Below, piece by piece: positions 41,415-47,576 of a stretch of DNA of 47,660 nucleotides; the stretch's first letter is position 1, and each line of letters begins with the position of its first letter. Under the pieces are notes generated by a model. That model had not been told where the DNA came from and did no database searches. It was given only the letters and a program-made list of their open reading frames with translations. The DNA is from an uncultured Candidatus Saccharibacteria bacterium (lineage in GTDB: Bacteria > Patescibacteriota > Minisyncoccia > Phycocordibacterales > XYD1-FULL-46-19), in assembly GCA_964446245.1 (NCBI GenBank), contig CAYUNI010000003.1, positions 1 through 47,660 on the forward strand, in the 5' to 3' direction. Both the position numbers and the translations under genes were made by a program.

Positions 41415-42017
41415 TCAAATCAATGTTCTTTGGGACTCGGAAATTACCAGAGCTTGATCATTGGTTAATTCTTGAATTGGGTAAGAGACTTTTTTCTTAA
41501 ATTCTTCAACTTCATCCCTATTTTTCTCTTCTTCAAAATGAGGAAATATAGCGGTGTCGGTAAAATTAAATCCTTCCATATCCTCTAATCCTATTTCATT
41601 ATCGTCACCATCGATTCCCCAACCAGCAATCTCTATACTCGGACCAGCAATAATACTGCCAGCAGAGACGCCAAAATAAATTGTTCCTTTAGAAACTTGA
41701 GACTTAATATAATTATCAATTCCCGTATTCCTCATCTTGCTTAAAATAGAAAAAGTGTTGCCTCCACAAACATAGATGACATCAAAATTCTGCAAATCAT
41801 CAACACTAAAAGATTCATTCATATTCAGGACAACAACTTTAAATCCAAGATCTTCTACTTCTTTTCTAGATTCATTTATGTAAAAATTCTCTTCTTTGTT
41901 TTGACCATAAGCGACGACAAGAAGGCTCGTTTCTTTTGGCTCTCTAACTAGCAATTTTAAAAAAGCATTAACAATTTTTTGGTTTGATAAACCGGCCGAA
42001 GTAAGTATTAATTTCAT
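41415..42017 (-). CDS. pepE: Peptidase E (S51 family dipeptidase)
   Basis: 200 aa. VCGGNTFSIL and nucleophile context GVSAGSII. Confidence 0.85.
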   Translation of the reverse strand: MKLILTSAGLSNQKIVNAFLKLLVREPKETSLLVVAYGQNKEENFYINESRKEVEDLGFKVVVLNMNESFSVDDLQNFDVIYVCGGNTFSILSKMRNTGIDNYIKSQVSKGTIYFGVSAGSIIAGPSIEIAGWGIDGDDNEIGLEDMEGFNFTDTAIFPHFEEEKNRDEVEEFKKKVSYPIQELTNDQALVISESQRTLI

Positions 42018-42023
42018 AAATTA

Positions 42024-42032
42024 ACTATATCA
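42024..42032 (-). promoter_or_regulatory. Extended -10 box for pepE (leaderless type)
   Basis: Minus strand reads TGATATAGT, then 6 nt, then the ATG (42017). Confidence 0.4.
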
Positions 42033-42325
42033 AAAGTTCTGTACCCTATCTAGATTGTCTTAAATGGGCCTTGTAAAATATGGATTTAAAAATGCTCGAC
42101 ATTGCACGAGAAATAGGAACCTTTTGGAAAGAGAATAAAGCCCACATTTGGCTACCAAATATCAAGCAGGGTTTCTTTGGAATTACGAGGCCGACTGAGG
42201 CTGAGATGAGAAAGTATCGTTAATCTTAAATGGTAGAACTAGAATGAAAAAAGAAATTAAATATTTAATCTTTCACAGTATTATTATAGTAATTTTTATG
42301 CTAAAATTACACCATATTAAATTCT

Positions 42326-43717
42326 ATGCCAAAACAGATTATAAATTATCAAGATAAATGGAAGGTACAAAAAGTCAAAATAAAAGATCTTGTTTTGGAT
42401 GTTAAGAATATTAGACTAGGCATTGAGCATAGTTCTCAAGATGAAATAATTAATGACTTATTTATTAATGAGAATGCGATGGATATTTTAGAGAATATCT
42501 ATCAAATTGGTTATTTCCCCGATGAACCACCGGTTGTCATAAAAGAAAATAAAGACCTTGTTGTACTTGAAGGTAACCGTAGAGTTGTATCTTTAAAAGC
42601 AATGTTGAGTCCTGGCATTGCCCCGGCAAAATTTTCTCAGAAAATCAAAAAAATGATGGAAGGACATAGTCCTATCGAAGAGATTAATGTTCACGTTGCG
42701 ACATCCCGTAACGAAGCAATGGAATACTTGGCGGCCAAGCACACAAAAACAACTAGAAAACCTTGGACGGCACTTAGACGAGCTTATTTTTATTATGCGC
42801 AAAAAGAACAAGGGCAGACCGTAGATAAACTCATTGAGAGATATAAAGGAGTAGATATTGCCGGATACATAAAAATGTACGAAATGCATCATGTTGCATC
42901 CTCTCTAAAAAACATAACCGAAGATGTTCGTAAAAAAGTTTTAAATAAGGGAACATTTAATATATCAACTCTGGAGAGATTCTATTCTGACAAGTACATT
43001 CAAGATTCTCTCGGTATCGAATTTGATAAGACGACCGGTGAGTCCAAAGTTCCATCGTCTGATGATTTTGACAAGGTCTATTCTAGGGTTATTACCGACA
43101 TTACATCTGGTATAGCTACATCTCGTAAGGAGTTGTCTAAGGAGTCAGACCGTAAGAAATACATCGATTCAGTGATAAATGAAGTATTGGAAGGTAAAAA
43201 AGTTTCAAAACAAACAAAGAAATCTGCTTTCTCTTTTAAACAGGGTAAGATATCCACGAAGAAACAAAAAGGTCTTATCTCGAAGAATATTGATAATCCA
43301 TTAGATAGTCCAGGTGTTGGTCGTGTATTGTGGGAGTTACAAAATATGGATTATGCAAAGTATCCAAACGCTACCGCTGATCTCCTTCGTACTTTTTTGG
43401 AAATTGTTCTAAAGAAATATCTAGAGGATACTAATTCGTTGCCAAATCCTACTGACAAGAATGGAAAAAAGAAATTTGTAATGTTGAGTCATGTATTGGC
43501 TAAAATAAAAGCGGATCTTCAAAAAGATTCTAATACTAAACTTGTTCAGGTTGTACAGGAAATTGAACAAAATAAATGGTATTTAGATAGCATTAACCAT
43601 AATCCCGATGTTTTTGCTGTCGAAGATAGAGTTAAAGATGCGTGGGATCAAATATATCCACTGGTTAAATTTTTATTTGACGATTATAAAAAGAAAGTGA
43701 CATTAAAGAAAAATTGA
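42326..43717 (+). CDS. ParB/Srx-fold N-terminal domain protein with a large unassigned C-terminal region
   Basis: 463 aa. VKIKDLVLDVKNIRLG...IGYFPDEPPVVIKENKDLVVLEGNRRVVSLKAM follows the ParB N-terminal pattern, including the GxRR box. The remaining roughly 370 aa carry no motif I recognise. The TGA stop is 1 nt before the next ATG. Confidence 0.7.
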   Translation: MPKQIINYQDKWKVQKVKIKDLVLDVKNIRLGIEHSSQDEIINDLFINENAMDILENIYQIGYFPDEPPVVIKENKDLVVLEGNRRVVSLKAMLSPGIAPAKFSQKIKKMMEGHSPIEEINVHVATSRNEAMEYLAAKHTKTTRKPWTALRRAYFYYAQKEQGQTVDKLIERYKGVDIAGYIKMYEMHHVASSLKNITEDVRKKVLNKGTFNISTLERFYSDKYIQDSLGIEFDKTTGESKVPSSDDFDKVYSRVITDITSGIATSRKELSKESDRKKYIDSVINEVLEGKKVSKQTKKSAFSFKQGKISTKKQKGLISKNIDNPLDSPGVGRVLWELQNMDYAKYPNATADLLRTFLEIVLKKYLEDTNSLPNPTDKNGKKKFVMLSHVLAKIKADLQKDSNTKLVQVVQEIEQNKWYLDSINHNPDVFAVEDRVKDAWDQIYPLVKFLFDDYKKKVTLKKN

Positions 43718-43718
43718 T

Positions 43719-44573
43719 ATGAAGTTTTATTCACCATTAAGATATCCGGGTGGAAAAAACAAATTAGCAAAATTTGTTGCTTTGATATGTGAAAAAAATA
43801 ATATCAACGGACATTATATAGAACCATATGCTGGTGGTGCATCGGTCGCCTTACATCTTTTACTTAATGGGTATGTCAAAGAAATTACAATCAATGACTA
43901 CGATCGTGCTATATATGCTTTTTGGTACTCAGTATTAAATGATACTGATAAATTTTGTCGCAAGATTAAAAAGACAGAAGTTAATTTAGAGAACTGGAGA
44001 AAGTTCAAAAAGATACAAGATAATAAAGAAAAAGCACCTTTATTCGATCTGGGATTCTCCACATTCTTTTTAAATAGAACAAATCGTTCAGGAATTATAG
44101 ATGGCGGGATGATTGGTGGATTAGAACAAAATGGAAACTATGCGATTGATTGTCGTTTCAACAAAGATGAATTAATTGAAAGAATAAAATTTATTGCAAT
44201 ACACAAGAAGAATATCCATCTAAATAATCTTGATGCATTGGACCTTATTAAAGGAATTAAAAAAATGTCTGGTAAGAATAATACTATATTTTATTTTGAC
44301 CCCCCATACTATCTCAAAGGCCCATCACTTTATATGAACCATTACAAACATGATGACCATAAAAAAGTTAGTGATGAAATTAAAAAGATAAAAAACATAA
44401 AATGGATTGTTTCTTATGATAATACCCCTGAGATAAAAAAACTCTACTCATTCAGTAAGAAAAAGGAGTATTCATTCTTACATACCGCTTATGAAATTAG
44501 AGAAGGAAAAGAAGTACTGTTCTTCAGTAAAGATCTAATTATTCCAAGAGTTTCTCAGCCAACCAAGATTTAA
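43719..44573 (+). CDS. Dam-family (D12 class) N6-adenine DNA methyltransferase
   Basis: 284 aa. PLRYPGGK, SAM motif EPYAGGASVA, catalytic FYFDPPY. Confidence 0.85.
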   Translation: MKFYSPLRYPGGKNKLAKFVALICEKNNINGHYIEPYAGGASVALHLLLNGYVKEITINDYDRAIYAFWYSVLNDTDKFCRKIKKTEVNLENWRKFKKIQDNKEKAPLFDLGFSTFFLNRTNRSGIIDGGMIGGLEQNGNYAIDCRFNKDELIERIKFIAIHKKNIHLNNLDALDLIKGIKKMSGKNNTIFYFDPPYYLKGPSLYMNHYKHDDHKKVSDEIKKIKNIKWIVSYDNTPEIKKLYSFSKKKEYSFLHTAYEIREGKEVLFFSKDLIIPRVSQPTKI

Positions 44574-44576
44574 TTA

Positions 44577-45098
44577 TTATTTAGCTCTATATTTTTTAGG
44601 TCTATCACCCTTAAGTAATCTCTCAAAGGCCTCTAAGTTTCCCATAGCATCATGAACTGGATGGTGGTCGTGTTTCGTTATACGCAATCTCTTCCAAGAA
44701 GATGCATCTTTAAAGTCTCCAATTAAGCCAGCGTAAAAATCACCAATCCTACGACCGGAATATCCAAAGGGATTATTTCCAATGGTCCGGTGAAAGCTAT
44801 CATTGATCCATTGCCAATCAAAAGCAGGATTATCGCTTACAAACTTTGGCTTTTCATCGCCACAAATATCCTTTAACCATGCATTGAATTTTTCAAACAC
44901 TTCTTTCTCATCAAAAACAACACCGGTCCCAATTTTAAATTCAGGATTTTCTGGATCAGGCTTTCTTTCAATCAATACTCCATGGAAGGTAGCCTTTGAT
45001 GGGTATGCTACTGCGCCAAATTCAGTAAGCTTGCCCATACTTGGACACTTACCGTTTGCCTCGCAGTCTACAAATATTAAATTCTTTAAATCGTCCAT
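44577..45098 (-). CDS. DEDDh-type 3'-5' exonuclease (DnaQ-like fold)
   Basis: 173 aa. ExoI FVDCEANG, ExoII FVSDNPAFDWQW, ExoIII HHPVHDAMGN. Confidence 0.7.
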   Translation of the reverse strand: MDDLKNLIFVDCEANGKCPSMGKLTEFGAVAYPSKATFHGVLIERKPDPENPEFKIGTGVVFDEKEVFEKFNAWLKDICGDEKPKFVSDNPAFDWQWINDSFHRTIGNNPFGYSGRRIGDFYAGLIGDFKDASSWKRLRITKHDHHPVHDAMGNLEAFERLLKGDRPKKYRAK

Positions 45099-45184
45099 GG
45101 GTGCATTTTAACTCTTTGATTAAATAAGACATAATTCTCAGATCACTAGACTTCCTAAAAACCTTCCGGTATGTTCGTGTGTGC

Positions 45185-45496
45185 ATGAAAAAGAGGTTTA
45201 TAAAAGCACAGGAAAAAGATATTGCAGGCACAAGTCTTGTCGGCTACATCCTTTCCTCGTATGACAACCTTGTAAAGCATCTCGGCCAACCAAAAGACAT
45301 GTATGGCATATTCGGCGATTGGAAGACAAAGGCTGAATGGTCCTTCAAGACACGATCACCAAAGCCGACAGTCATCACCATCTACGACTACAAAGAAATA
45401 ATTCCAATATCAGAGGTTTGTACTTGGCATGTCGGCATGAAAGGAAATAAGAAATTATTAAATGATTTTTTAAAAGAATATAAACTATGCCAATAA
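45185..45496 (+). CDS. Hypothetical protein (103 aa)
   Basis: ATG at 45185 (the ORF track begins at a GTG at 45179). Overlaps the next ORF by 10 nt. No recognised motif. Confidence 0.5.
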   Translation: MKKRFIKAQEKDIAGTSLVGYILSSYDNLVKHLGQPKDMYGIFGDWKTKAEWSFKTRSPKPTVITIYDYKEIIPISEVCTWHVGMKGNKKLLNDFLKEYKLCQ

Positions 45497-45690
45497 TCGA
45501 TGACACAAAATGTCAGAAATGTAGAAGTGAGAAGATTATCTTTATTGAGTATGCTTGGGATCATCCCGAGCATTATGATGGTACAAGTGAAATCCAGTGC
45601 CTTGATTGTGGTGCTAGATTTGGTCGATGGTCCTGTAAGGAATTGGGTCCCAATGAGTATGAAAAAAGAAAGTGGTACAAAAAAGAATGA
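45487..45690 (+). CDS. Small zinc-ribbon protein (67 aa)
   Basis: CQKC...CLDC four-Cys pattern, translationally coupled to 45185-45496. Confidence 0.55.
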   Translation: MPIIDDTKCQKCRSEKIIFIEYAWDHPEHYDGTSEIQCLDCGARFGRWSCKELGPNEYEKRKWYKKE

Positions 45691-45759
45691 AATAAGCTTC
45701 TAAAATAAAGATAAATTCGGACCTTTAGTTTGATTACTAAAAATGCTAAAATACCAAGT

Positions 45760-46716
45760 ATGACTACTCAGCAAGCTATCAAAGAAATACAAAATAAATT
45801 TGATGTTAATGCTATCTTTGCATATAGAGTATATTCTCTTGCTGATAAGAAAAATCTATTTGAAGACGTTGCAAAAATAATCGCTGAAAAACCAAAGCCA
45901 TTCGTCAAATGGGTTGGTGGTAAAAGACAACTCTTAGCACAATTCAGGAAATTAAATTTATACCCACCTGAATTATTTGATATTAAAACCGGTAGATACT
46001 TTGAGCCGTTTGTCGGTGGTGGTGCAGTATTTTTTGATCTCCTTCCTGAAAAAGGATTCCTTTCTGATTTAAATAAAGAACTTGTTACCACATATAACAT
46101 TATTAAAAATGATGTAGATGCACTAATTGTATCTCTTAAGAAACACAAGACTGATAAAGAATATTTCTTAAAGATTCGTACCCAGGACCCGAACAAACTA
46201 AGTGATTTGAATGTTGCCTCACGTTTTATATTCCTCAACAGAACATGTTTCAACGGAATGTATCGAGTAAACAGCAAGGGCGGATTTAATGTACCATATG
46301 GTAAATACACTAACCCTTTGATTTGTGATGAAGACAACCTCAAAAAAGTTTCTAAGGCTTTGCAGGGAATAGAAATAAAACATCAGGATTACAAAGAGGT
46401 TCTCAAGAAATCTAAAAAAGGTGACTTTGTTTATTTTGATCCACCCTACTACCCAGTAAGTAAGACGGCATCATTTACATCGTACACAGCAGAATCATTC
46501 CTTGATAAAGAACAAATAGAGCTTAGAGATACGGTTCTAGAGCTACACAAGCGAGGATGCTACGTGATGCTCTCAAACTCAGACACACCATTCATCAATA
46601 AGATTTATTCAGGTTTCAAAGGTATACGGATTAACAAAGTTGAGGCAGGCCGAGCAATCAACTCAAAAGGTTCAGGTAGAGGAAAAATAACTGAGGTTCT
46701 CATAACAAATTACTAA
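45760..46716 (+). CDS. GATC-specific Dam-type methyltransferase, DpnM/M.MboIA-like
   Basis: Collinear with DpnM as I recall it: VKWVGGKRQLL, YFEPFVGGGAVFFDL, FNGMYRVNSKGGFNVPYG, DFVYFDPPY, YVMLSNS, GRGKITEVLITNY. The ATG at 45760 is preferred over the TTG at 45730. Confidence 0.9.
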   Translation: MTTQQAIKEIQNKFDVNAIFAYRVYSLADKKNLFEDVAKIIAEKPKPFVKWVGGKRQLLAQFRKLNLYPPELFDIKTGRYFEPFVGGGAVFFDLLPEKGFLSDLNKELVTTYNIIKNDVDALIVSLKKHKTDKEYFLKIRTQDPNKLSDLNVASRFIFLNRTCFNGMYRVNSKGGFNVPYGKYTNPLICDEDNLKKVSKALQGIEIKHQDYKEVLKKSKKGDFVYFDPPYYPVSKTASFTSYTAESFLDKEQIELRDTVLELHKRGCYVMLSNSDTPFINKIYSGFKGIRINKVEAGRAINSKGSGRGKITEVLITNY

Positions 46717-46718
46717 AT

Positions 46719-47576
46719 ATGAAAAAAGATTTTAATAACTTAATAACAACATTCAAAAGCTCAATTAAAACCTGGGACTATTTCGTTAATTGGAATAAGG
46801 TATTTTCAAATAGCTCAGAATTAGAGATTGCTTTAAACAAGCTTAACTACCTACTCGGTAAAGAGAATCTGAAGGAAGAATTTGTAAAACTTTACAGTTC
46901 AAATACTGACATAGTAAAAGCTCTTCCTGTCCTATTGGCGGTCCGAGAAAACAAGCTCGAGGTGTTTGATAAAGCAACTAAGAATTCTGAATTCTTTGAC
47001 TTTACTGGTAAAGAAAAAGATGCTGATAAGTATTTTGAATTCCTAGATAAATCTGGTCTTGCACGACTATTTCAAAAAGATGGAGTTAAAAATCTCGTCG
47101 ACTATGTAATGGGAGTAGAGGTTGGACTTGATAGTAATGGACGAAAGAATCGGGGCGGCACTTTAATGGAAGAAATAACAGGTGCTTTCTTAACTGATTT
47201 CTGCAATAAGAACGGTTATGAGTGTCTTGCTCAAGCACGTCCTAGTGCAATAAAAGCTAAATGGGGTTTTGATGTGAAAGTAGATAAATCAGAACGTAGC
47301 TTTGACTTTGCGATATACAACACTAAAAATAAGAAACTTAAACTATTTGAGGCTAACTTTTATAACGGTGGCGGATCTAAACTTAAAGCAGTTTGTGGAG
47401 AATTTAGAAGTCTCTACGATGAATTGAAAGCTCAGAATATTGATTTTATTTGGATAACTGATGGATTGGGCTGGAACACAACCAAGAGACCTCTTGAAGA
47501 AACATACAACCATAATGAGTATGTGTTCAATCTCAATATGCTCGAATCAGGCGCACTAAATGAACTAAAATGGTAA
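46719..47576 (+). CDS. Type II restriction endonuclease, DpnII/MboI family (GATC)
   Basis: 285 aa, collinear with R.DpnII as I recall it: WDYF..W.KV, ALPVLLAVR, FFDF, LVDYVMGVEVGLDSNGRKNRGG, FDFAI, EANFYNGGGSKL, FIWITDGLGW. Confidence 0.9.
   Translation: MKKDFNNLITTFKSSIKTWDYFVNWNKVFSNSSELEIALNKLNYLLGKENLKEEFVKLYSSNTDIVKALPVLLAVRENKLEVFDKATKNSEFFDFTGKEKDADKYFEFLDKSGLARLFQKDGVKNLVDYVMGVEVGLDSNGRKNRGGTLMEEITGAFLTDFCNKNGYECLAQARPSAIKAKWGFDVKVDKSERSFDFAIYNTKNKKLKLFEANFYNGGGSKLKAVCGEFRSLYDELKAQNIDFIWITDGLGWNTTKRPLEETYNHNEYVFNLNMLESGALNELKW

Follow-up and report, generated by a model that had tools for sequence, protein, structure and literature searches.

A PD-λ-5-type gene pair in a Candidatus Saccharibacteria genome: a ParB/Srx-like protein with a predicted HEPN-like C-terminus next to a D12-class adenine methyltransferase

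The stretch of DNA analysed here (the window) comprises 47,660 nucleotides of contig CAYUNI010000003.1 from an uncultured Candidatus Saccharibacteria bacterium (assembly GCA_964446245.1). Near its end it carries two adjacent genes of the type found in the anti-phage system PD-λ-5, both on the plus strand, both starting with ATG in the open reading frame (ORF) scan and both recognised by PADLOC. Gene A (42326..43717) encodes a protein of 463 amino acids (aa) with a predicted ParB/Srx fold and a C-terminal HEPN-like bundle. Gene B (43719..44573), which is also recognised by Pfam, encodes a 284-aa D12-class (Dam-family) N6-adenine DNA methyltransferase. Together they span 2,248 bp, and a single nucleotide separates the stop codon of A from the start codon of B (AAT TGA t ATG AAG). 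An earlier note on this DNA, made from the letters alone, had drawn attention to this tight coupling of A to a complete D12 methyltransferase and to its position in an A/T-rich island beside a GATC restriction–modification (R-M) cassette. Both descriptions hold: the motifs EPYAGGASVA and DPPY are present in B, which passes the PF02086 cutoff, the GC content drops from ~0.40 to ~0.33 from position 42000 onward, so that the pair lies within the low-GC stretch, and a Dam/DpnII cassette follows downstream. A scan for promoters and terminators gave no signal above that of shuffled sequence and detected no terminator at the A-B junction.

The pair is identified by matches to PADLOC that cover nearly the whole of both proteins. 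Protein A matches 19 PD-Lambda-5_A models, the best at 5.4e-47 and several of them end to end: residues 11-452 align with positions 8-465 of the 473 positions of PDLC04017 (2.1e-40, full length), and residues 14-450 with positions 4-447 of another model of 449 positions (9.3e-35). Protein B matches the PD-Lambda-5_B model (PDLC04018, 291 positions) at 7.2e-121 over its residues 1-281. A further match links A to phrog_9592 (6e-45). No Pfam or NCBIfam family matches A at E<=0.01, and no restriction endonuclease matches it in Pfam, PADLOC or NCBIfam or by fold. When A and its C-terminal domain were compared, by sequence and by profile, with the sequences of the Protein Data Bank (PDB), the matches were at chance level only, among them a MarR-type regulator (0.026) and a PRD1-type protein P6 (0.048). 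Close homologues carry the names Taylorbacteria, Nomurabacteria and Paceibacterota, from which the host is judged to be probably Patescibacteria-like.

PD-λ-5 was recovered from Escherichia coli ECOR7 by functional selection and validated as a two-gene anti-phage system (Vassallo et al., 2022, Nat Microbiol, PMC9519451). The prototype genes, RCQ13837.1 and RCQ13838.1, cover 2,461 bp and are labelled 'ParB/HEPN, methyltransferase' in the supplementary table of that study. In E. coli these two genes confer broad and strong protection against many phages, and T-even phages are blocked more strongly than λvir (PMC9519451). The prototype had to be cloned in E. coli lacking mrr (Δmrr), a sign that it methylates foreign DNA actively (PMC9519451). 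The window pair has the same gene order on one strand, a similar size and the same domain make-up: the N-domain of A is of ParB type and its C-terminus weakly HEPN-like, and B is a D12 adenine methyltransferase. It differs in its setting: the prototype resides in an E. coli prophage, whereas the window pair, which is only remotely homologous, lies on the chromosome, in a low-GC island, of a probably Patescibacteria-like host. The pair is a real, intact and conserved defence operon and a new, distant member of a known system. The earlier note had proposed an undescribed module, and this novelty is removed by the PADLOC matches to a system validated in 2022. Protection against phages was shown for the E. 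coli prototype and is putative for the window pair itself. In the later literature on PD-λ-5 we found no paper that resolves the mechanism.

The domain combination has an older history. ParB-HEPN fusions and operons of ParB, methylase and HEPN genes were already catalogued in 2013 (Biol Direct, PMC3710099), and the authors predicted an R-M-linked role in conflict for these systems. In comparison with the 2013 examples (Saro_3948, MAE_28990), the window protein lacks the Rx4-6H motif; the likeness lies in the combination of domains, and the Pfam HEPN models do not match A. The earlier note had also seen in the pair a split version of known ParB-methyltransferase fusions. This reading is not supported, as the pair constitutes a separate family whose C-terminal bundle is absent from those fusions.

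Protein A has three parts, the last of them joined on by a basic linker, all described here with plus-strand coordinates. An AlphaFold2 (AF2) model built on a 40-sequence alignment has a mean predicted local distance difference test score (pLDDT) of 85, and residue conservation was assessed in 128 full-length family members, remote ones included. The N-terminal domain (approximately residues 12-160; 42359..42805) is predicted to adopt a true ParB/Srx fold. All 13 PDB structures that Foldseek matched to the model at E<=1e-3 are ParB, Noc or KorB proteins, headed by CTP- or CDP-bound ParB (7bnr, 6sdk, 7bnk), Noc (7ol9, 7nfu) and KorB (8qa8), with E values of 4e-5 to 1e-3 and a probability of 1.0. 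Sulfiredoxin, SbnI and PadC come next, and SspE stands low in the list. Many ParB/Sulfiredoxin entries of a viral structure library also match the model, and at the sequence level the PHROG family 'ParB-like partition protein' matches residues 24-168 at 4e-7. Among 40 homologues of A, weak matches to GmrSD_N were found in nine and to ddrB-ParB in five.

Three conserved motifs mark this domain. The N-terminal ParB-type motif LDxxNxR (residues 24-30; 42395..42415) keeps D25, N28 and R30 in 98% of members. The earlier note had recognised a ParB N-terminal-type domain by its GxRR box, LEGNRRV, which lies at residues 81-87, and the fold comparison bears this out. The conserved EGNRRVVS box (residues 82-89; 42569..42592) corresponds to ParB Box II, GxxRxxA, and is a predicted loop for NTP-phosphate binding or catalysis: E82 is kept in 99% of members and G83, N84, R85 and R86 in all, while position 89 is alanine in 95% of the family, completing GxxRxxA, and serine in the window protein. 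The third motif, the loop KHTKTTR (residues 138-144; 42737..42757), contains H139, which is invariant, as is W147. From the order of secondary-structure elements, we infer that this loop is the counterpart of ParB Box III. Binding of a nucleotide, possibly CTP, by A is predicted from the likeness of its fold to CTP-bound ParB.

The likeness to ParB continues beyond the N-domain. Against ParB, Noc and KorB structures that lack their C-terminal part (targets of ~200 residues), the Foldseek alignments run over 220-290 columns, and hence extend into the helical, DNA-binding-domain-like middle region of A (approximately residues 161-290; 42806..43195), where R218 is kept in 91% and R267 in 97% of members. 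There follows a poorly conserved, lysine-rich linker (approximately residues 291-328; 43196..43309; KKVSKQTKKSAFSFKQGKISTKKQKGLISK), which is variable in the alignment, with insertions and deletions, and has lower pLDDT in the AF2 model. With the clamp-forming CTPases ParB/Spo0J, Noc and KorB, A therefore has in common the N-domain fold, the GxxRxxA box, a helical region of DNA-binding type, a flexible basic linker and a C-terminal helical domain. It differs from them in its obligate link to a methyltransferase in place of a ParA partner and parS repeats, in the replacement of Box III by a KHTxxTR loop with an invariant histidine, and in its HEPN-like C-terminal bundle.

The C-terminal domain of A (residues 329-463; 43310..43714) is present in nearly all members of the family. 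Modelled on its own, it forms a five-helix bundle with a pLDDT of 96.5 and a predicted template modelling score (pTM) of 0.89. The earlier note had held that the ~370 residues beyond the N-domain match nothing; these residues instead comprise the ParB-like helical region and this well-folded, conserved bundle. Foldseek returned no significant match for the bundle (best E 0.83). The structures that superpose best, with template modelling (TM) scores of 0.4-0.57, are mostly solved HEPN proteins, including 2q00, 1ufb, Csm6 (5yjc), 4nqf, 1wol, 2hsb, AbiA (8oz7) and HEPN-MNT (8xeh). A profile search recovered no Pfam HEPN family for the domain beyond isolated chance-level matches. Three residues, E337, R355 and H425, are invariant in a diverse alignment. 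Around the invariant histidine, the motif [L/M]-[D/N]-x3-H-N (LDSINHNP in the window protein, residues 420-427; 43583..43606) aligns with the HEPN signature R-[N/D]-x3-H in degenerate form: the position of the HEPN arginine is occupied by L in 153, M in 30, Q in 17, F in 7, K in 4 and R in 2 of 218 members, and the bundle is without the canonical catalytic motif Rx4-6H. We conclude that the bundle is probably HEPN-like at the level of its fold only. A role as RNase is doubtful because the HEPN catalytic arginine is lacking, and a role in dimerisation, comparable to that of the C-terminal dimerisation domain of ParB, or in regulation is at least as likely.

These observations bear directly on the proposal of Vassallo et al. 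that PD-λ-5 combines R-M with abortive infection. In that scheme the ParB domain is the DNase of a compact R-M unit, and the C-terminal domain, as an active HEPN RNase, kills infected cells in which restriction has failed or been inhibited. Later papers count PD-λ-5 among the HEPN-containing systems, HEPN structures lead the fold matches of the bundle, and its three invariant residues suggest a functional site. However, the arginine of Rx4-6H is replaced by Leu, Met, Gln or Phe in ~97% of 218 members, the Pfam HEPN matches are at chance level and the best fold match has an E value of 0.83; the HEPN call for the prototype itself was made at 35.6% probability for DUF4145 and 8% for HEPN_RiboL-PSP (Vassallo et al., 2022, PMC9519451). 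We consider this combined reading rather unlikely.

Protein B matches PF02086 (MethyltransfD12) at 9.3e-17, with 62 bits against a cutoff of 22 bits, and its closest solved chain is the adenine-specific methyltransferase 7m6b (2e-18). The S-adenosylmethionine-binding motif I (EPYAGGASVA, residues 35-44; 43821..43850, plus strand) and the catalytic motif IV (DPPY, residues 194-197; 44298..44309, plus strand) both align with the same motifs in 7m6b. With both motifs intact, B is a complete DNA methyltransferase of the Dam family (D12) and of the N6-methyladenine (m6A) type.

The A family is large. A word-indexed search found 204 clusters at 90% identity in metagenomes, and an exhaustive profile search found 4,079 representatives of 50%-identity clusters at E<=1e-3, 332 of them at E<=1e-30. 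In all 18 loci collected through A, a B homologue lies immediately 3′ on the same strand; these loci come from genome assemblies of Bacteroidota, Saccharibacteria, Paceibacterota, Zixibacteria, Omnitrophota and Kaiserbacteria. Conversely, each of the four loci collected through B has an A-family member immediately 5′, unannotated, 427-468 aa long and with the GNRR box. A is therefore directly upstream of B in 22/22 loci, of which 21 are distinct (L004 and L012 are the same place). The earlier note would have been refuted by a pair that is not neighbouring in other genomes, and the loci show the opposite. A full pair also adjoins the integrase of Marinobacter phage AS1. No third gene recurs with the pair, and among 115 flanking ORFs each Pfam family is seen three times at most. 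In two loci the arrangement is elaborated. In L026 (730-7542), the pair is nested between the mod (TypeIII_RM_meth/N6_N4_Mtase) and res (ResIII/HI_1054) genes of a type III system, one modification-linked system inside another. In L007 (5968-9622), the order is A-B-A′, with A′ directly after the methyltransferase; A′ is a divergent A paralogue of 458 aa that matches the family profile at 2.8e-15 with both its N- and C-terminal parts.

The genes that recur near the pair, again among the 115 flanking ORFs, are R-M components, serine recombinases, Fic proteins and AbiEii-like ATPases. Individual pairs adjoin an HpaII R-M system with Vsr (L002), GmrSD (L025) and a Schlafen-like helicase (L023). 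These neighbourhoods bear on whether A might serve a mobile element as a ParB for partition or segregation and stand only by chance beside an unrelated orphan methyltransferase. The fold of A does match partition ParB, Noc and KorB, and a plasmid homologue of A is annotated 'ParB/RepB/Spo0J family partition protein'. Nevertheless, B is adjacent in 22/22 loci, ParA is not among the recurrent families of the flanking ORFs, the contexts are mostly chromosomal, and the C-terminal domain of A is unlike the ParB dimerisation domain. In the window itself, the ORF scan and Pfam found no ParA in the flanks of the pair, and no parS-like repeat family was found near it, the repeats present being short, two-copy and of chance type. 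Partition is effectively refuted by the A-B linkage together with the absence of ParA and parS. The earlier note, which had favoured defence over partition and had seen no conventional restriction enzyme, ParA or parS-like repeat beside the pair, is upheld here, also by the PD-Lambda-5 matches in PADLOC.

A ParB-domain protein encoded by P2-like coliphages was considered as a possible prototype and rejected, since the ParB N-domain alone is in common and the gene layout is different. In these phages (L019, Escherichia phage vB_EcoM-12474III, NC_049457.1 5009-8045, with the same region in P2, Wphi and L-413C), a 372-aa protein with the ParB N-domain only lies by the portal gene, followed by a 330-aa hypothetical protein, and a DNA methyltransferase is encoded on the opposite strand. 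The region may represent a related but differently built hotspot cargo.

Although A and B always stand side by side as putatively co-transcribed genes, their sequences have not travelled together. All-against-all comparison of 20 A/B pairs (190 comparisons) revealed a poor correlation between A and B identities (Spearman 0.24). Loci L002 and L026 have A proteins 82% identical and B proteins 45% identical, whereas the window and L021 show the reverse, with 23% for A and 78% for B. Over the loci collected through B, identity to the window is 74-78% for B and 23-52% for A; L021, L023 and L025 account for A values of 23-31% at B values of 74-78%. In the 427-aa A variants of L023 and L025, the C-terminus has diverged beyond the reach of the family profile but keeps the pattern 'xRLxx[E/D] ... 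AH'. As strong divergence is seen in either partner, these values imply partner swapping and no consistent difference in rate of the kind known from R-M. The adjacency of A and B is obligate, and the partners are exchangeable between lineages. The swapping leaves three possibilities: one mark common to all B clades, an A that derives its sequence specificity from its B partner, much as type III Res does from Mod, or an A that reads methylation whatever the surrounding sequence.

Partner swapping also removes the need for a tight match in specificity, and would as such suit a reading in which A assists or regulates the methyltransferase, comparable to DndB or DpdB. Mobile elements would then carry the pair chiefly as an epigenetic or anti-restriction module, with defence as a side effect. 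ParB-superfamily proteins do regulate or power steps of DNA modification in Dnd and Dpd, and pairs occur on a phage beside its integrase and beside recombinases. Against this, homologues protect strongly and broadly with the two genes alone, it is not obvious how a methyltransferase and its regulator would block a phage, and a regulatory role leaves a separate C-terminal domain throughout the family unexplained. We regard this alternative as improbable.

We favour the interpretation that the two genes form an anti-phage system of the PD-λ-5 type in which B marks self and A acts as the effector on unmarked DNA, with a probability of roughly 0.6. B would mark the host's own DNA, and A would use its ParB-like part to bind DNA in a way that depends on a nucleotide. 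On unmarked DNA, or once the state of methylation is perturbed, A would become an effector, and the outcome would be nicking or cleavage of DNA by its ParB/Srx pocket or an arrest of growth triggered by A. That A is a methylation-sensitive effector, as the earlier note had suggested, is a reasonable inference. Several points weigh against this interpretation. The literature found contains no experiment showing methylation sensing by A, cleavage of DNA or RNA, or toxicity without B. The stronger protection against T-even phages, with their heavily modified DNA, than against λ is atypical of simple restriction of unmodified DNA and argues against it. ParB/Srx domains in Dnd and Dpd are regulators or ATPases of the modification step, not effectors. 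Finally, the shuffling of A and B seen in the sequences argues against a co-evolved pair of independent sequence readers, unless the B clades share one specificity or A borrows that of B.

Like classical type II R-M systems, the pair links a methyltransferase gene tightly to a non-homologous partner and occurs in defence islands. In contrast to them, it is without a PD-(D/E)XK, HNH or GIY-YIG endonuclease, its partner having a ParB fold, and the T-even protection of the prototype is atypical for type II enzymes. GmrSD/DUF262, SspE and DndB share with A an NTPase-type N-domain of the ParB/Srx superfamily in DNA-modification-linked immunity. In these proteins the box is of the DGQQR/DGQHR type, the nuclease domains are HNH or DUF1524, and modified DNA or phosphorothioate is what they sense, whereas A has an EGNRR box, lacks an HNH domain and is partnered by an m6A methyltransferase.

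A more specific scheme is speculative, and we think it unlikely to be correct: PD-λ-5A might be a nucleotide-gated DNA clamp of the ParB type, recruited for immunity, that dimerises through a HEPN-derived bundle without the catalytic arginine, is loaded on DNA or slides over it, reads the adenine methylation set by an interchangeable methyltransferase, and arrests or nicks unmarked DNA. If true, this would represent a restriction principle without a conventional endonuclease, and the first ParB clamp serving as a sensor of self and non-self.

The remaining features of the window lie around the pair. Downstream, a gene for a 173-aa DEDDh-type exonuclease (44577-45098, minus strand) is convergent with B, their stops being 3 nt apart. 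Its product matches the Rv2179c-like family at 1.4e-5, which is under the Pfam cutoff, and the PADLOC 'Effector exonuclease' at 5.9e-15; the cluster to which it belongs at 90% identity comprises 102 members, one from a metagenome-assembled genome of Candidatus Taylorbacteria. This gene was considered as a third component and rejected, as it stands next to the pair in the window locus only. Two small overlapping ORFs of 105 aa and 67 aa (45179-45690, plus strand) separate the PD-λ-5 pair from the Dam/DpnII cassette. The 67-aa product has a CxxC zinc ribbon and weak matches to Lar restriction-alleviation proteins (0.005) and ECs_2282 (8e-4), and could be a regulator or an anti-restriction-like remnant. 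The cassette itself is complete and begins 1.2 kb downstream of the pair, with a 328-aa Dam methyltransferase (45730-46716, plus strand; TIGR00571, 6e-88) followed 2 nt later by the DpnII endonuclease (46719-47576, plus strand; 2.8e-91). The Dam gene was called from a TTG start, and a ~55-aa N-terminal extension precedes the Dam core. GATC sites are not depleted in the window, with 128 observed and 150 expected outside the island.

Upstream of A, a gap of 308 bp (42018-42325) holds a 47-aa ORF (42080-42223). It was considered as a controller protein and rejected, since it has a counterpart in no related locus, and it is probably not a gene. From ~5 kb to 42 kb, the minus strand encodes nearly all large ORFs; the switch of strand falls at ~42 kb, where the low-GC island starts. 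No tRNA, tmRNA or Rfam element was detected across the window (1-47660), and no island boundary is marked by one.

PADLOC and DefenseFinder already cover PD-λ-5, which has also been validated by experiment, and the pair therefore carries little weight as a discovery. Its family is large and spread over many phyla, including candidate-phyla bacteria. What the analysis contributes is a narrowing of the mechanistic options for PD-λ-5. The ParB part resembles CTP-binding clamps, including their DNA-binding region, the domain labelled 'HEPN' lacks the catalytic arginine family-wide, and lineages freely swap their methyltransferase and ParB partners.

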